NCBI GenBank assembly: GCA_964651385.1
Contig: CAZYYM010000005.1
Coordinates: 13,836 to 77,835 of the forward strand
DNA length: 64,000 nucleotides
Direction: 5' to 3'
Source of the DNA: an uncultured Gammaproteobacteria bacterium
GTDB lineage: Bacteria > Pseudomonadota > Gammaproteobacteria > GCA-001735895
Shown: positions 2,679 to 57,532 of the stretch, in pieces
Layout: every line of letters starts with the position of its first letter
Numbering within the stretch: position 1 is the first letter of the stretch
Notes under the pieces: generated by a model
Told to the model about the DNA's origin: nothing
Database searches by the model: none
The model's input: only the letters and a program-made list of their open reading frames with translations
Position numbers and translations under genes: made by a program

Positions 2679-4013
2679 ATGCCAGGCAAAGAGACTATAG
2701 CCGCTATCGCCACCCCTCCGGGTATTGGCGGTATTGGTGTCATTCGAATCTCCGGTAGCAAGGCCAGGCAGATTGGTGAATTACTCACCGATAGCTCTCT
2801 GGTCGATAAGCGTATTCAGTTTCGCAGGTTTTATGATTCTCAGAAGCAGGTTGTTGACCATGGCATCTGCTTTTATTCGGCAAGGCCACAATCTTTTACC
2901 GGCGAAGATGTTGTCGAGGTTCAGGCGCATGGCGGACCTATTCTGCTCGATATGTTGCTTGAACGTATCTGTGAGCTCGGCGCTCGACTGGCACAGGCAG
3001 GGGAATTTTCTGAACGAGCGTTTACCAATGGTAAGCTCGATCTGGCACAGGCCGAGGCCATAGCGGACTTAATCGAATCCGGCAGTCGTGCCGCTGCGAA
3101 AGCTGCGATGCGTTCACTGCAGGGCGAGTTTTCGAGTCGGATTCACAAGTTGGTTGACGACATTATTAATTTGCGCAGTTATGTCGAAGCGGCACTGGAT
3201 TTTGCCGAGGAAGAAATCGATTTTCTCGGCGACAACAGGATTGTTAGCCAATTACAGAACAGCCAGGAAAATATTTTTCAAGTTTTAAAAAGAGCCGAGC
3301 AGGGCCGAGTTCTCAAGGAAGGTTTAAACCTGGTTCTGGCCGGCCTACCCAATGCGGGAAAATCCAGCTTATTGAATTATCTGGCTGGTTATGAAGCGGC
3401 GATTGTGACTGAAATACCCGGCACGACGCGTGATGTTTTGCGTGAACACATATCACTCAAGGGCATTCCGCTACACATTCACGATACGGCTGGTCTCCAC
3501 GATTCTGACAATCCGGTCGAACAGGAAGGCATAAAGCGGGCCTGGAGGGAAATCCGGCAGGCGGATTCGGTATTGTTGCTGGTTGATGCGACGATCGGCA
3601 TTACCGAATTGGATCGGGTGATCATAGAACAACTCGAATCGGTGAATTATAAATTAATATACAGTAAAGTTGATTTATTGCCGGATACCTGCATACGAGA
3701 GGCAGACAGATTGTATATTTCGACACGAAATGGCGAAGGCTTGTCGGAGCTAATCGAGGCGATAACGAATAAATTATTAGATTTCAATCTGGACGGGCAA
3801 TCCATATTGGCCCGTCGACGCCATATCGATGCGCTGCAACGAGCCGGAGACAGCCTGAACCAGGCCAGTCGGGTATTTCTCGAAACCGGGTCGGCGGAAT
3901 TAATGGCCGAGGATCTTCGGATTACTCAACAATATCTCAGTGAAATTACCGGAGAATTTACTTCCGATGATTTACTCGGGCAGATATTTTCACGATTCTG
4001 TGTCGGTAAATAA
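2679..4013 (+). CDS. mnmE: tRNA modification GTPase MnmE (TrmE)
   Basis: TIAAIATPPG.GGIGVIRISG, GLPNAGKSS, PGTTRD, DTAG, C-terminal FCVGK. Confidence 0.97.
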   Translation: MPGKETIAAIATPPGIGGIGVIRISGSKARQIGELLTDSSLVDKRIQFRRFYDSQKQVVDHGICFYSARPQSFTGEDVVEVQAHGGPILLDMLLERICELGARLAQAGEFSERAFTNGKLDLAQAEAIADLIESGSRAAAKAAMRSLQGEFSSRIHKLVDDIINLRSYVEAALDFAEEEIDFLGDNRIVSQLQNSQENIFQVLKRAEQGRVLKEGLNLVLAGLPNAGKSSLLNYLAGYEAAIVTEIPGTTRDVLREHISLKGIPLHIHDTAGLHDSDNPVEQEGIKRAWREIRQADSVLLLVDATIGITELDRVIIEQLESVNYKLIYSKVDLLPDTCIREADRLYISTRNGEGLSELIEAITNKLLDFNLDGQSILARRRHIDALQRAGDSLNQASRVFLETGSAELMAEDLRITQQYLSEITGEFTSDDLLGQIFSRFCVGK

Positions 4014-4032
4014 AATGGGCATCAGGGTTTGT

Positions 4033-4962
4033 TCAAGATAAAGTACGGCGTAACAGCAAAATATTTTTAAATTCATCCGGATCCTTGGTAAATGTTAAAT
4101 CACCGACCAGAGGAGGGTAAATTTGATCCTGTAAACGCGACAGCCAGAAACGTGTCGCGGCCAGCCGCAACATTAAGGTCAGATTATCTTGTTCAATCGC
4201 CTGCAAGGGTCGCAATGATTCGTAGGCGTCGATGAATGCTCGCACTAAACCGGCATCGAGGTCACCATTTTTCTGTATGCAGCAATCATTCAGGGCAATT
4301 GCTAAATCGTAGAGAAAGACTTCATCGCAAGCATAGTCGAAATCGATAATACCGCCCAATTTGTCGCCATCGAAAAGACAATTGTCATGAAATAAATCGA
4401 GGTGAGTCGGTCCACCGGGCAGGTTCAGGAAATTAAGAGAATGAAAATTATTGATTTCGTCGTCGAGCAATTTCTGATCGTCCATTTTCAGGTGTGCCTG
4501 TAGCTTTCGCGGCATTGATAATATCCAGCATTTACCACGAGGATTAAATCGCGTATACCGATAATTCTTCCCCGCCAAATGAAATTTTGCCAGTTCGGTT
4601 CCAATAAACATGCAGTGTCGAGGTGCCAGATATCGACAGACATGACCTTTTATCCGATTATTTATTGCTGCCGGGCGGTTGTTTAAGGTTGAATAATATC
4701 GTTGTTGGTTATCGATAACCGGGGTTGCACAGGCGACTCCCTGGTTGGCCAGATGATGTTGTAAACCGAGTATATAATCGAGATCCTTCGGCTGGTGGTA
4801 TTCATAAAGCGTCAGCACAAATTTGCCCTGCTCTGTTTCCAGCCAGTAATTGCTGTTGGTTATACCATTTTTGATGCCCGAGTAGGAAAGCAGATCACCG
4901 ATGGTATAACCTGCAAGAAATATCTCGAGTTCGGTGGTTGAAACAGAGGTATAAACTGACAT
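4033..4962 (-). CDS. thrB: Homoserine kinase, type II (aminoglycoside-phosphotransferase fold)
   Basis: MSVYT.VS, GITNSNY, FVLTLYE, HLDLFHDNCLF, GIIDFDYAC, FWLSRL; next to polA as in pseudomonads. Confidence 0.88.
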   Translation of the reverse strand: MSVYTSVSTTELEIFLAGYTIGDLLSYSGIKNGITNSNYWLETEQGKFVLTLYEYHQPKDLDYILGLQHHLANQGVACATPVIDNQQRYYSTLNNRPAAINNRIKGHVCRYLAPRHCMFIGTELAKFHLAGKNYRYTRFNPRGKCWILSMPRKLQAHLKMDDQKLLDDEINNFHSLNFLNLPGGPTHLDLFHDNCLFDGDKLGGIIDFDYACDEVFLYDLAIALNDCCIQKNGDLDAGLVRAFIDAYESLRPLQAIEQDNLTLMLRLAATRFWLSRLQDQIYPPLVGDLTFTKDPDEFKNILLLRRTLS

Positions 4963-5046: not shown

Positions 5047-7743
5047 ATGAATCAGGAAAAACAAAAAAAACTGGTGTTGATCGACGGAAGTTCCTATCTA
5101 TTTCGAGCTTATCATGGATTACCCCCATTGACCTTTAATGGTCATGCTACGGGCGCCTTGTACGGTGTACTTAACATGCTACGTAAACTGGTCAAGGACG
5201 AACAACCCGATAATATTGCTGTGGTATTCGATGCCAAAGGAAAAACTTTTCGCAACGAAATTTATGCCGATTACAAGGCAAACCGGCCGCCGATGCCGGA
5301 TGATTTGCGCGAACAGATTGAACCCTTGCATGAAATCATACGGGCCATGGGGTTTCCGTTGGTCTGTATTGACGGGGTTGAAGCCGACGATGTCATAGGC
5401 ACCTTAAGTGTTAAAGCCAGTGAAAAAGAATTTCAGGTTTTGATATCTACCGGCGACAAGGATATGGCACAACTGGTTAATGATAATGTGCAATTGATTA
5501 ACACCATGAATAATCACCTGATGACGAGTGACACTGTGGTCGAAAAGTTTCAGGTTAAAGCTGATCAGATCATCGACTACCTGGCGTTAATGGGAGACAA
5601 TTCGGACAATATTCCCGGCGTTCCGAAAGTCGGTCCGAAAACGGCGAGCAAGTGGATAGCTCAATACGGCAGTCTGCAGGGCGTAATGGATCATGCCGAG
5701 GAAATCAAAGGTAAAGTCGGTGAAAATCTTCGCGATTCCCTCAATTTTCTGCCGATGTCGTATCAGCTCGCGACCATTAAACTCGATTGTGACACCGGTG
5801 TTGAAATTGATGAGCTCATTCAATCGCAGGCCGATAACAATGTGTTGGGGGAATATTATCAACGATTCGGTTTTACCCGTTGGTACGATGAGCTGGAAGC
5901 CCCGGTTTCTGATACGGAAATGCCTGATCAGATAAAAACCGACTACGAATGTGTGCTTTCTCAGGCAGTATTGAACTATTGGCTCGATGCATTGAAGAAT
6001 TGCGAGATTTTTGCCGTCGATACAGAAACCACCAGTCTTGACTACATGCAGGCGAAACTGGTCGGCATATCTCTATGCGTCGAAGCCGGAAAGGCATGCT
6101 ATATACCATTAGGTCATAGTTATCTGGGTGCCCCGGAGCAACTTGAGCGCAATTCAACTTTGGCGGCTCTAAAGCCGATTTTAGAAAATCCATCGATTGG
6201 CAAAATTGGCCAGAATATTAAATACGATGCGCATATATTTATCAGCGAAGGTATATTTTTAAAAGGTATTCGAGAAGACACCATGTTGCAGTCTTATGTG
6301 CTGAATTCAACGGCAACGAGGCACAACATGGATGCGCTTGCGCAGGTTTATCTTGGCCGGGATACCATACACTTTGAAGAAATCGCTGGAAAGGGTGCTA
6401 AACAAAGCACTTTCGACCAGATTGAGCTCGAAAAGGCCACTGATTATGCGGCCGAAGATGCCGATATTACGCTGCAATTACACGAAAATTTAAGGCCGAG
6501 ATTTGATGAAAATAACAGACTCTACTCGGTATACCGAAACATCGAACTACCATTGGTGGAAATCCTGGTTAAGGTAGAACAAAACGGTGTGCTGGTTGAT
6601 CGGAATCTGCTGCATCAGCAAGGTCTCGAAGTGGGGAAAAAGCTCGACGATATAGAAAAGTCGATTTTTCAGCATGCCGGTGAAGAATTTAACCTGAGCT
6701 CCCCAAAACAGATTCAGTCGATTTTATACGACAAACTCGAACTACCAGTTTTACGCAAGACACCGAAAGGACAGCCATCCACGGCCGAGGATGTACTCGA
6801 AGAACTGGCTTTGAATTATCCGATCCCTGCGTTGTTGCTCGAGCATCGCAGTCTGAATAAATTAAAGTCGACCTATATTGACAAATTACCTAACGAAATT
6901 AATGCAAACAGCGGTCGCGTACATACTTCTTACCAACAGGCGGTCGCGTCAACCGGGCGGTTGTCGTCAACCAGCCCCAATTTGCAGAATATCCCCATTC
7001 GAACTGCCGAGGGCCGACGTATTCGCGAAGCATTCGTGGCACCCAAAGGTAAATGCATACTGGCGCTGGATTACTCGCAGATCGAGCTTCGCATCATGGC
7101 GCATTTATCCACCGACGATAATTTAATCAAGGCTTTTGAGCAAGGCTTGGATGTGCATCGCGCCACTGCAGCAGAAGTATTTGGGTGTAAACTTGAATCG
7201 GTCGAAAACAATCAGCGCCGTGCCGCCAAAGCCATTAATTTCGGCTTGATTTACGGTATGTCCGCTTTCGGTCTCGGTAAACAGCTAAATATTGGTAGAA
7301 AGGAGGCGCAGCGATATGTCGAAACCTATTTCGAGCGTTATCCGGGCGTCAAACGATATATGGAGGAAACCAAACAATTGGCGAGGGATCAGGGTTATGT
7401 CGAAACCGTCTTTGGGCGGCGTTTATACCTGCCTGATATTAACGCCAGAAACACCATGCAACGCCAATATGCGGAGCGCACGGCAATCAATGCGCCCATG
7501 CAGGGCACCGCAGCCGACATTATCAAACGTGCGATGATCGATGTACATCACTGGTTGATCGAAGACGGTGATAATACCCGTATGATTATGCAGGTACACG
7601 ATGAACTGGTGTTTGAAGTTGATCAAAGCGACATCGACCGAAATCGTGATGCAATTGGTCAGTTAATGACTTCTGCGGCGGATTTATCGATAAAACTGGA
7701 GGTCGATGCGGGTGTCGGCGCCAATTGGCACGAAGCCCATTAA
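5047..7743 (+). CDS. polA: DNA polymerase I
   Basis: 5'-3' exonuclease LIDGSSYLFRAYH, 3'-5' exonuclease DTETT, polymerase motifs DYSQIELR, KAINFGLIYG, QVHDEL. Confidence 0.99.
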   Translation: MNQEKQKKLVLIDGSSYLFRAYHGLPPLTFNGHATGALYGVLNMLRKLVKDEQPDNIAVVFDAKGKTFRNEIYADYKANRPPMPDDLREQIEPLHEIIRAMGFPLVCIDGVEADDVIGTLSVKASEKEFQVLISTGDKDMAQLVNDNVQLINTMNNHLMTSDTVVEKFQVKADQIIDYLALMGDNSDNIPGVPKVGPKTASKWIAQYGSLQGVMDHAEEIKGKVGENLRDSLNFLPMSYQLATIKLDCDTGVEIDELIQSQADNNVLGEYYQRFGFTRWYDELEAPVSDTEMPDQIKTDYECVLSQAVLNYWLDALKNCEIFAVDTETTSLDYMQAKLVGISLCVEAGKACYIPLGHSYLGAPEQLERNSTLAALKPILENPSIGKIGQNIKYDAHIFISEGIFLKGIREDTMLQSYVLNSTATRHNMDALAQVYLGRDTIHFEEIAGKGAKQSTFDQIELEKATDYAAEDADITLQLHENLRPRFDENNRLYSVYRNIELPLVEILVKVEQNGVLVDRNLLHQQGLEVGKKLDDIEKSIFQHAGEEFNLSSPKQIQSILYDKLELPVLRKTPKGQPSTAEDVLEELALNYPIPALLLEHRSLNKLKSTYIDKLPNEINANSGRVHTSYQQAVASTGRLSSTSPNLQNIPIRTAEGRRIREAFVAPKGKCILALDYSQIELRIMAHLSTDDNLIKAFEQGLDVHRATAAEVFGCKLESVENNQRRAAKAINFGLIYGMSAFGLGKQLNIGRKEAQRYVETYFERYPGVKRYMEETKQLARDQGYVETVFGRRLYLPDINARNTMQRQYAERTAINAPMQGTAADIIKRAMIDVHHWLIEDGDNTRMIMQVHDELVFEVDQSDIDRNRDAIGQLMTSAADLSIKLEVDAGVGANWHEAH

Positions 7744-7838
7744 GGTCTGAATTTGCCGACTTGAAAAATTTTGATTCGAACCCAAATAATTAAAGAATTT
7801 TCTGGCAGAATAGACTATATATAAAGCATAACCTGTTA

Positions 7839-7865
7839 GAACTTTATAGTTGTGACGATGTCTAT
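7839..7865 (+). promoter_or_regulatory. Candidate sigma-E/AlgU-type promoter
   Basis: GAACTT (7839-7844), 16-nt spacer, TCTAT (7861-7865); fits GAACTT-N16/17-TCnnA except for the last base. Confidence 0.6.
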
Positions 7866-7867
7866 GA

Positions 7868-7985
7868 TTTTGCGCTATAGCCCAGCGCAAAAGTCCGTTC
7901 TTCCTCCTATGAGCGGACATTGATCCGGAAACCCCATCCGGTTCAAACCATTTGACCCTGGTAGTTATCTGCCAGGGCTTTTTTT
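7868..7985 (+). ncRNA. Candidate small RNA between polA and engB (Spot42/ErsA position)
   Basis: Three hairpins followed by an intrinsic terminator, directly after a sigma-E-like promoter; no credible ORF. The 5' end is approximate (~7868-7872). Confidence 0.6.
7956..7985 (+). terminator. Rho-independent terminator
   Basis: CCCTGGTAG-TTAT-CTGCCAGGG stem-loop (one G-U pair) followed by C and a run of 7 T. Confidence 0.85.
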
Positions 7986-8004
7986 GGGTGTTATATCCAG
8001 CCCT

Positions 8005-8595
8005 TTATAGAAAAGCAAGCCACTCGCGGCATCTGGCTTCCAATTGATCGAGACCATTACGGTTGATGACTGAAAGGCTGGACACCGAATGAAGGTCGCT
8101 ATGGAGTATTGTATGCGCCTGCTTGATTGATCTCTGCACAGCAGCTTTTGACAATTTATCGGATTTGGTTAACAAAATATGCAGAGGTAACCTATCGACC
8201 AGCATATCGATCAGCACCTGGTCCGCGTCGCCAAGGCCGCGCCGAATATCTACTACTATAACCAGTCCTTTTAAAGCTTTACGATGCAGAAGATAGGTCG
8301 ATAGTACCAGATCCCAGTGATTGCGCATTTTCCGGGAAACCCTGGCAAAGCCATAACCCGGTAAATCGACCAGATAGCGTTCCCCATTGAGCTTGAAAAA
8401 ATTGATTAGTTGCGTACGCCCCGGGGACTTGCTGGTTTTACAGAGGGCTTTCTGGTCGGTCAGGCAATTGATAGCACTGGATTTACCGGCATTTGATCGC
8501 CCGGCAAATGCAATTTCGTAACCCTGATCGGGAATCAGCTGTGAAAGCTCGAAAGCACTGGTTTGGAAAATTGCGTTACGGAAGAAATTACTCAT
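8005..8595 (-). CDS. engB: Ribosome biogenesis GTP-binding protein EngB/YihA
   Basis: AFAGRSNAGKSS, SKSPGRTQLINFF, DLPGYG, TKSDK. Confidence 0.96.
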   Translation of the reverse strand: MSNFFRNAIFQTSAFELSQLIPDQGYEIAFAGRSNAGKSSAINCLTDQKALCKTSKSPGRTQLINFFKLNGERYLVDLPGYGFARVSRKMRNHWDLVLSTYLLHRKALKGLVIVVDIRRGLGDADQVLIDMLVDRLPLHILLTKSDKLSKAAVQRSIKQAHTILHSDLHSVSSLSVINRNGLDQLEARCREWLAFL

Positions 8596-24567: not shown

Positions 24568-25479
24568 ATGACTGATCAAATAAATCCAGACAATGGCACG
24601 CGACGCGTTATCGATGATGACGAGTATATTTATTTTGATGGATACTGGATACGCTATTACCCACCGTTAGAAGATACGCTCGGTAACCGTAAGCGATTAA
24701 TCGACAGCCTGACCCGCCGTGCTTTCCATCATACCGAAGCGGGCATTAATACTCCCGGACAGAGTCTGGAGCAGGCGCGTGCGGCCTATGAGAAACAATC
24801 TAATCCGCAACGGAAACGCGTCAATGCAGCGATGTTGGCAGGTGCGCTTTTTAACCGAGCGACGGATTTGTTTACTTCAATAGTGGATCTCGGTGAATTG
24901 GGTGTCAAGGTGAGTAAAAGTAATGAACTCATGCGGCAGTGCAGTTCCTGTTTTCAGGAAGCATTAACCCTCGGTCAGCAGGTAAAGCACTATAGCGGCT
25001 GCGAAGGGCTTGATGAAATCTGGGGGGAACCTTTTAAAGCATTTACGCTGTCGCCGGACGATTTTTATAAATCCCGATTCATAAAAATTGCGCAAAGTAA
25101 AAGCGATATTGATTTGATCACCGAGTGCATAATTGAAACTTTTTGCGGCGTTCCAATATTTGCTGAATTACACGCTGTTTTGATCGAGTTCGGCGAAGCC
25201 GCCAAACAGGTGTCGGAGACTATGAAGACAGACCCGATTATTTTTGAAGTATGGCCCAACTTCGTTGCCCTTGCAGAAACGATTATTAGTTTTCAACCTG
25301 ATCTGGCCGATGACTCGGATCAGATGCTGACAATGCGCACGGCTCAGGGGCGGGCCTTGTTACTCGAAGGCAAGCAGCTGCTCGGCTATATCGCCGGTGC
25401 GCGAATTCCCATGCCGCTGAGTACTGCGCGATATATTAAAAAATGTCAGGCGTACGAGGCGCCGTTGACAGATAACTGA
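24568..25479 (+). CDS. Hypothetical protein, 303 aa, probably alpha-helical, function unknown
   Basis: Long standalone ORF with protein-like composition and no overlapping gene; no family motif recognised. Confidence 0.8.
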   Translation: MTDQINPDNGTRRVIDDDEYIYFDGYWIRYYPPLEDTLGNRKRLIDSLTRRAFHHTEAGINTPGQSLEQARAAYEKQSNPQRKRVNAAMLAGALFNRATDLFTSIVDLGELGVKVSKSNELMRQCSSCFQEALTLGQQVKHYSGCEGLDEIWGEPFKAFTLSPDDFYKSRFIKIAQSKSDIDLITECIIETFCGVPIFAELHAVLIEFGEAAKQVSETMKTDPIIFEVWPNFVALAETIISFQPDLADDSDQMLTMRTAQGRALLLEGKQLLGYIAGARIPMPLSTARYIKKCQAYEAPLTDN

Positions 25480-57094: not shown

Positions 57095-57532
57095 GTGAAA
57101 ATGATATTAGGAGAGCTTTTACGTATCAAGGGTACCAAAATGATACTCAAAGTCGGTGAAAACGACAGTGTTGCTCAGGCAGCCACCTTGATGACCGAGA
57201 ACAAGGTGGGTGCATTATTGGTTGAAGGCACGGCCGGGCAAATTGTTGGGATACTTTCCGAGCGTGATATAGTCGGCGGCATGGGGCTACATGGCGCGGA
57301 TTTGCATGATGCCCGGGTATCAACATTAATGACGGCCGATTTAATTCGTTGCAAGCCGACTGATACGGTATTACAAGCTATGGCTATGATGACCGATCGG
57401 CGGTTTCGCCACTTGCCAGTATTTGATGAAAATGAGCTGGTCGGATTTATCAGTATTGGTGACCTGGTGAAATGTCGTATTGCTGAAGTTCAGCTAGAGG
57501 CCGAAGCCATGCGTCAGTACATTGCATCCTGA
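57095..57532 (+). CDS. CBS domain pair protein
   Basis: VGALLV, GILSERD, FRHLPV, GFISIGDLVK. Confidence 0.9.
   Translation: MKMILGELLRIKGTKMILKVGENDSVAQAATLMTENKVGALLVEGTAGQIVGILSERDIVGGMGLHGADLHDARVSTLMTADLIRCKPTDTVLQAMAMMTDRRFRHLPVFDENELVGFISIGDLVKCRIAEVQLEAEAMRQYIAS

Follow-up and report, generated by a model that had tools for sequence, protein, structure and literature searches.

A predicted small RNA gene convergent with engB is, by sequence and fold, a divergent and unannotated relative of ErsA, anti-hemB/ncS04 and sX13

We report that the spacer between polA and engB in an uncultured gammaproteobacterium encodes a structured, conserved RNA which, judged from its sequence, is an unannotated divergent relative of three known bacterial RNAs: ErsA, anti-hemB/ncS04 and sX13. 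The gene lies in a 64-kb stretch of chromosome, hereafter the window, and all coordinates refer to that stretch. We consider it likely that the RNA is a trans-acting small RNA (sRNA) belonging to an engB-convergent group of beta- and gammaproteobacteria, that it is induced by sigma-E, and that it acts by pairing its loops with mRNAs. Whether the four RNAs descend from one ancient engB-convergent, originally sigma-E-driven sRNA gene is a broader proposition, which our comparison supports short of proof and to which we give about an even chance.

Results

A four-hairpin RNA gene lies between polA and engB

The polA-engB spacer is 261 nt long, with the RNA gene inside it. thrB and mnmE flank the pair on one side and cytochrome c4 and dsbA on the other, a gene order that is Pseudomonas-like. 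The rest of the 64 kb looks like ordinary chromosome (yidC, mnmE, thrB, polA, engB, cytochrome c4 and dsbA, with further genes for a hybrid histidine kinase, a response regulator and recDBC). We saw no rpoE gene in the window, and one open reading frame at 24568-25479 (303 aa) has no NCBIfam match. The features of the locus are as follows.

5047-7743, plus strand: polA, the upstream context of the RNA gene
7839-7865, plus strand: sigma-E/AlgU-type promoter read from the sequence, with -35 GAACTT (7839-7844), a 16-nt spacer and -10 TCTAT (7861-7865)
7868-7985, plus strand: small RNA of about 113-118 nt, with its 5' end predicted at 7868-7873 and its 3' end at the U7 tract
7868-7892, plus strand: SL1, a 9-bp stem UUUUGCGCU/AGCGCAAAA with loop AUAGCCC (sequence and fold)
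7893-7918, plus strand: SL2, an 8-bp stem GUCCGUUC/GAGCGGAC with loop UUCCUCCUAU at 7901-7910 (sequence and fold)
7925-7941, plus strand: SL3, a 5-bp stem CCGGA/UCCGG with loop AACCCCA, a 4C motif (sequence and fold)
7942-7955, plus strand: A/U-rich single-stranded linker UUCAAACCAUUUGA before the terminator (fold)
7956-7977, then C and U7 to 7985, plus strand: intrinsic terminator, a 9-bp stem CCCUGGUAG-UUAU-CUGCCAGGG (sequence and terminator scan)
8005-8595, minus strand: engB/yihA, convergent to the RNA and the conserved neighbor of the whole RNA group

A preliminary description of this DNA, made from its letters, had placed the promoter, the hairpins and a terminator ending in T7 at 7985, and we found every element where it had been placed. 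The 118-nt RNA folds into exactly four hairpins, SL1, SL2, SL3 and the terminator, with a minimum free energy (MFE) of -51 kcal/mol against -25.2 +/- 3.3 for shuffled sequences (z -7.8; 0/200 shuffles equal it). The true 5' end may fall inside SL1, downstream of its outer pairs. The SL2 loop includes CCUCCU, the core of the anti-Shine-Dalgarno end of 16S rRNA, and is the probable seed of the predicted sRNA. Among relatives, no part of the RNA varies more than the linker at 7942-7955; by analogy with ncS04 and ErsA only, it is a possible Hfq site.

Only two open reading frames overlap the RNA, one at 7684-7920 on the minus strand and one at 7952-8047 on the plus strand (31 aa). We rejected the first as a gene because non-conserved spacer lies within its span, and the earlier judgment that the region holds no credible open reading frame was upheld.

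The promoter motif gains its weight from position and conservation

Taken alone, the promoter motif is unremarkable: GAACTT-N16/17-TCT occurs once in the window where 0.83 occurrences are expected, a chance level. What gives it weight is where it lies and that homologues keep it. The window motif, GAACTT-N16-TCTAT, matches the GAACTT-N16/17-TCnnA found upstream of all ErsA loci. A sigma-E-type motif at a fixed distance, ending 1-9 nt before the modelled RNA, precedes 13 of the 15 strong family members described below as well as all ErsA loci. Among metagenome loci linked to engB, 67/72 carry the motif 19-27 nt upstream of SL2, compared with 2.1% of 15,623 background windows, and a sigma-E-type promoter is present in 42/46 engB-linked loci of the beta type. 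On metagenome contigs, relatives of the window locus differ in the letters of the spacer and yet retain the -35 and the N16 distance. The sigma-E-type promoter of the preliminary description is thus borne out as a conserved motif at its coordinates; the identity of the sigma factor and induction by envelope stress are predictions for the window RNA.

The motif is absent from two Burkholderia-like loci (L089 and L148) and from L003 and L055, so regulation is not uniform across the RNA group. L089 and L148, which are engB-linked and resemble ncS04, have TATATCAT in place of the sigma-E motif and a sigma-70-like promoter, unlike the window, and some members of the family have apparently changed promoter type. 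Their lack of the motif fits the report that ncS04 expression was unchanged under the stresses tested (PMC5688073). L003 (3633-3752) and L055 (3682-3809) are related members that also lack the CCUCC loop of SL2; the single-stranded linker that follows their SL2 contains AAUUCCUCCAA.

Two further elements lie upstream in the window. A sigma-70-like TTGAAA-18-AATAAT falls in the non-conserved part of the spacer (7761-7790), and an AT-rich CTATATATAA at 7815-7824, 15-24 nt upstream of the -35, recurs in relatives, perhaps as an UP-like element or as a binding site.

Family models recover the RNA at the same site in other Gammaproteobacteria

The search for homologues covered 80 species, each represented by the 3' end of polA and a further 2.5 kb, about 0.51 Mb of genome loci in all. 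Many gammaproteobacterial loci in this set carry GAACTT-N16/17-TCnnA followed by a hairpin-rich RNA. A first family model (R1), built on a MAFFT alignment with the window in its seed, gave 15 matches that were strong (49-89 bits), spread over 12 loci, 4 of them outside the seed. The window scored 82 bits, the single match in its 64 kb. Weaker matches included the sX13 locus L045 (37 bits) and every Pseudomonas, Stutzerimonas and Halopseudomonas ErsA locus (20-34 bits), and all R1 matches lie on the polA strand downstream of polA. SL1-SL3 were poorly aligned in the MAFFT alignment, with about 50% of cells paired, and for this reason R1 was replaced by a model of the window sequence alone (R2) and a realignment.

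As the window sits in the seeds of R1 and of a later family model, R3, it is R2 that provides an independent membership test. R2 recovered nine other members at E<1 among the genome loci, with matches in L001 (E 2e-4), L011 (4e-4), L028, L030, L037, L066, L004 and L059; these are full-length, occupy the engB-adjacent site and belong to other Gammaproteobacteria. No off-site match at E<1 was found in the 0.51 Mb. R2 also recovered 51/100 metagenome loci, the best being L136 (42 bits, E 2.5e-6). With R3 the window scores 94 bits. R3 aligns sX13 over all four helices, L045 scoring 35-37 bits over the four with R1 and R3. For ErsA the R3 alignment takes in SL1, SL3 and the terminator, and a U-rich domain stands in place of SL2; with R1 and R3 all ErsA loci score 20-34 bits.

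In more distant polA-engB spacers of Methylococcales (L013, L018 and L071) and of Oceanospirillales and OM182 (L014, L040, L060 and L067), GAACTT-N16/17-TCnnA likewise precedes an RNA that has CCCC(C) loops and ends in a terminator. The family models give these spacers only 15-27 bits, and they may represent lineages of the engB-linked group that have diverged further.

All four helices covary and the loops are kept

Every strong member folds individually into SL1, SL2, SL3 and the terminator. The preliminary description had proposed aligning orthologous spacers and testing for covariation, and when this was done the stems proved to be kept. The R2-guided alignment has 95% of its cells in pairs and two-sided changes at 23/31 pairs, with a covariation score of 0.54 against 0.16 for shuffles (0/500 reach 0.54) and <=0.09 for slid partners. 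For 96 metagenome sequences the proportion of paired cells is 96% and the covariation score 0.52, against 0.14. Compensatory changes occur in all four helices. For the R2-guided alignment and the 96 metagenome sequences respectively, two-sided changes affect 7/9 and 6/6 pairs of SL1 and 3/5 and 4/4 pairs of SL3; the terminator helix is 100% paired, with compensatory changes in 6/9 and 8/9 pairs. These numbers are biased towards structure because the alignments were fitted to the model; the individual folds and the control with slid partners point the same way.

Across family members the stems vary and the loops are kept: in the MFE folds, 12/15 have CUCC in the SL2 loop, and 12/15 have CCCC in the SL3 loop. 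The earlier proposal of a discrete RNA of about 115 nt at a conserved position is sustained, in the form of a structured, conserved RNA gene at the ErsA/Spot 42 position.

The RNA resembles three separately described families

No Rfam family reached its gathering threshold anywhere in the 64-kb window. When 7700-8050 was searched by E-value, the best match was anti-hemB (RF02837), with 24.9 bits and an E-value of 7e-4 for model positions 1-81 over 7892-7985, which is significant and below the gathering score of 49.5. Neither ErsA (RF01719) nor sX13 (RF02232), each with a gathering score of 50 bits, gave a match in 7700-8050 even at E<=10. The closest relatives of the window RNA score 27-43 bits with the anti-hemB model, 27-38 bits with sX13 and, in L037, 33 bits with ErsA. 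The Lysobacteraceae locus L045 reaches the sX13 threshold at 50.8 bits; it has GGAACCT-N17-TCTAT upstream, and no engB was found within 2.5 kb downstream of its polA.

The preliminary description had recognized neither Spot 42 nor ErsA in the sequence, which is correct at the Rfam thresholds of both, and had taken a lack of Rfam hits as support for novelty. The RNA does lack an Rfam annotation; the suggestion that it may found a new family did not survive. Its similarity to anti-hemB, the cross-matches to sX13 and to all ErsA loci, and the engB arrangement that it shares with ncS04 make it a divergent member of a known group.

Anti-hemB, known as ncS04 in Burkholderia cenocepacia, is the one of the three with the best Rfam score on the window RNA. 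Like the window RNA it is convergent with engB, lying between BCAL0264 (hemB) and BCAL0265 (EngB), both on the reverse strand, and pointing at engB (supplement, Sass et al. 2017), and it runs, as the window RNA does, from SL1 through a hairpin with a CU-rich loop and SL3 to a terminator. The window SL2 aligns to the anti-hemB hairpin CCCGCU-UCUCCUCCCUG-AGCGGG. Written in full, the window GUCCGUUC-UUCCUCCUAU-GAGCGGAC and the anti-hemB CCCGCU-(U)CUCCUCCCUG-AGCGGG are alike in position, in the CCUCC core and in the GAGCGG arm, and the two differ in stem and in loop (UUCCUCCUAU in the window, UCUCCUCCCUG in anti-hemB). The SL3 loop is AACCCCA in the window and U-rich in anti-hemB. ncS04 is a primary transcript, as established by dRNA-seq, RACE and Northern blot, and it binds Hfq (PMC5688073).

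ErsA (Pseudomon-1) of Pseudomonas aeruginosa occupies the same polA-engB interval on the polA strand, with engB convergent, and shares the promoter form given above. Experiments in P. aeruginosa show that its promoter depends on AlgU; the RNA is assisted by Hfq and represses both algC and oprD (PMC8395346). It differs in having an unstructured U-rich domain for target pairing where the window RNA has the SL2 hairpin, and a C-rich stretch in its terminator loop where the window has UUAU. Many relatives also have a C-run in the terminator loop, which the window RNA lacks.

sX13 of Xanthomonadaceae likewise lies downstream of polA and bears apical C-rich (4C/5C) loops, a trait that the window loops share (AACCCCA in SL3, CCUCC in SL2 and GCCC in SL1). 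The C-rich loops of sX13 bind G-rich motifs at the ribosome-binding sites of mRNAs and repress these mRNAs, and sX13 is Hfq-independent (PMC3771888); dependence on Hfq varies among the three RNAs. We found no report of sigma-E control in the cited sX13 literature.

The open-access literature that we searched never mentions sX13 and ErsA together, its papers naming anti-hemB do not concern ErsA, and nowhere does it state the idea of a superfamily of ErsA, sX13 and anti-hemB.

The RNA keeps company with engB

All 15 strong genome matches converge on engB, which is followed by cytochrome c4, and the RNA stays at engB even where other genes intervene before polA (L001, L030 and L059). Scanning metagenomes with the SL2 pattern CCCGCTN{2,3}CCTCCCTGAGCGGG, which the window SL2 does not match exactly, gave 120 loci, 77 of them with a convergent engB and mostly then cytochrome c4. 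Loci of the 2-nt-spacer type mostly have polA upstream, the upstream gene of the window and of all gamma-type loci. In the 3-nt-spacer type, which is the anti-hemB consensus, the upstream open reading frame was a divergent gene of about 335 aa in 8/8 loci read, confirmed as hemB in two by PF00490; beta-type loci thus have hemB in place of polA, as at anti-hemB.

Two kinds of additional copy came to light. L066 carries three tandem copies of the RNA within 3647-4276 (3647-3765, 3897-4016 and 4161-4276), each preceded by its own GGAAC..-N16/17-TCTnA motif. About 25 of the loci L081-L200 (including L082, L086, L091, L096, L099, L103, L107, L130 and L140) encode the same four-hairpin RNA away from engB, hemB and polA, with a sigma-70-like promoter of the form cTTGa-N17-TAAATT or TAGATT. 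These unlinked RNAs form a paralogue class of anti-hemB-like RNAs, under what is apparently different control.

The near-universal linkage would make sense if the RNA worked mainly in cis on engB, a ribosome-biogenesis GTPase gene whose expression could be tuned by convergent transcription or by antisense overlap at its 3' end. The window arrangement is suggestive in this respect. The engB stop codon (8005-8007, minus strand) lies just 19 nt from the last U of the RNA, the RNA terminator is not bidirectional, and the sole terminator-like hairpin on the engB strand (8027-8015) is weak and inside the gene end, so engB transcripts may run antisense into the sRNA gene. We nevertheless regard a principally cis-acting role as unlikely. 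The distance from RNA to engB ranges from about 10 to about 500 nt, conservation is centered on the apical loops and not on a region complementary to engB, and the unlinked paralogues keep the same loops away from engB. Both ErsA and sX13 are trans-acting, with many target mRNAs (PMC8395346, PMC3771888), and deletion of ErsA had no polar effect on its flanking genes (PMC8575079).

Selection acts on the promoter and the RNA

The closest genome relative by the polA C-terminus has only 72% identity, so metagenome contigs were needed for covariation among near neighbors; these were aligned to the window at 80% identity and are fragments only. In such relatives 7836-7985 is nearly unchanged and the flanks have diverged. 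A 28.5-kb contig has 21 differences in the last 143 nt of polA and cannot be aligned over 7743-7835, the 93 nt after the polA stop. Within 7866-7985 it has four changes (G7866A, A7890G, U7902C and G7913A), and past 7985 differences are dense again. A7890G turns a U-A pair into U-G, U7902C falls in the SL2 loop, and G7913A turns a U-G pair of the SL2 stem into U-A. In another relative contig U7959C is paired with A7974G in the terminator stem. The promoter and RNA are conserved against the divergence of the remaining spacer, and we conclude that selection acts on them and not on the rest.

This pattern bears on a second alternative, in which no independent sRNA exists and the region is nothing more than a structured polA 3' UTR with its terminator, the hairpins serving to stabilize or terminate the polA mRNA. 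The terminator scan found no intrinsic terminator from the polA stop (7743) to 7956, so polA transcripts must traverse the RNA region, and read-through transcripts probably end at the RNA's terminator. Metatranscriptome contigs of relatives cover the RNA together with DNA upstream of the promoter; as they include that DNA and carry no strand, they define no discrete transcript. Against a mere 3' UTR, the first 93 nt past the polA stop are unconserved where promoter and RNA are conserved, and the RNA keeps to engB in the three loci where it is separated from polA. Beta-type loci lack a co-directional upstream gene, since hemB is divergent there, the L066 copies each have their own promoter, and the homologue ncS04 is a dRNA-seq-proven primary transcript (PMC5688073). 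We find it quite unlikely that the region serves polA alone.

Contigs from four small marine metatranscriptomes are >=99% identical to L066 over 3916-4270. They cover two of the three tandem copies, stop at the last terminator and leave polA and engB uncovered; being strandless and broken at repeats, they indicate abundance and not transcript ends. Among public sequencing runs none contained the exact window sequence and no RNA-seq of the source organism turned up, the best runs having <=12% of the words of a 601-nt region, or 33% of the RNA's words.

Spot 42 is a CRP-repressed, Hfq-dependent regulator of carbon metabolism encoded at the polA-engB locus of enterobacteria and vibrios. The window RNA shares its interval and an intrinsic terminator, and the Rfam Spot 42 model (RF00021) matches weakly at 17.1 bits. 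That match is restricted to the terminator and is far from the gathering score of 80; the two RNAs differ in promoter, sequence, structure and seeds. The window promoter is sigma-E-type and not a sigma-70 promoter with CRP, its C/U-rich loops have no Spot 42 counterpart, and R1 and R3 miss the Spot 42 loci L065 and L077 and give only 14-16 bits (E 0.6-0.9) on L072. Orthology to Spot 42 (spf) is accordingly very unlikely. That the spacer holds a functionless chance cluster of hairpins or a REP-like repeat is barely credible: although the promoter motif alone is at chance level, the fold's z-score, the single copy in the window without any repeat family, and one orthologous site kept across orders and classes with compensatory changes refute it unless the homologues are misassigned.

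Discussion

A trans-acting sRNA remains our favored reading, and a mode of action can be proposed for it by analogy with sX13, ncS04 and ErsA. Under envelope stress, an RpoE/AlgU-type sigma factor would read GAACTT-N16-TCTAT. Transcription would run from near 7870 to the U7 terminator and yield an RNA of about 115 nt, whose four hairpins are shown by folding and covariation. The loops CCUCCU of SL2, CCCC of SL3 and GCCC of SL1 could then pair with G-rich or Shine-Dalgarno regions of mRNAs and block their translation, lowering the amount of an envelope or other protein, possibly with the help of Hfq. When the SL2 and SL3 loops were scanned for duplexes with 46 translation-start regions in the window, a sample of 1-2% of a genome that is uninformative on targets, the best value was -13.4 kcal/mol, at the open reading frame 57095-57532.

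In E. coli, the sRNAs MicA, RybB and MicL each link a sigma-E promoter to a short terminator-ended RNA that represses translation of envelope proteins. The regulatory logic proposed here is alike, with unrelated sequence and position, and MicA, RybB and MicL pair through single-stranded seeds at the 5' end and not through C-rich loops at hairpin tips.

The window genome gains a sigma-E-type sRNA gene that standard Rfam annotation misses, and the RNA sits between three families that have been curated and studied separately. ErsA is relevant to Pseudomonas virulence and carbapenem susceptibility and sX13 to Xanthomonas virulence, while anti-hemB has lately been read as an antisense regulator of haem synthesis. 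Our comparison suggests that the three share a locus, a promoter type and an architecture. If so, knowledge of targets and mechanism could be transferred among them, and the reading of anti-hemB as antisense to hemB would become doubtful. One broader covariance model could annotate the engB-linked sRNA in many beta- and gammaproteobacteria. Should a single origin prove true, three Rfam families and many unannotated lineages would form one superfamily of envelope-stress sRNAs spanning beta- and gammaproteobacteria that would work through conserved, C/U-rich apical loops imitating the anti-Shine-Dalgarno sequence.
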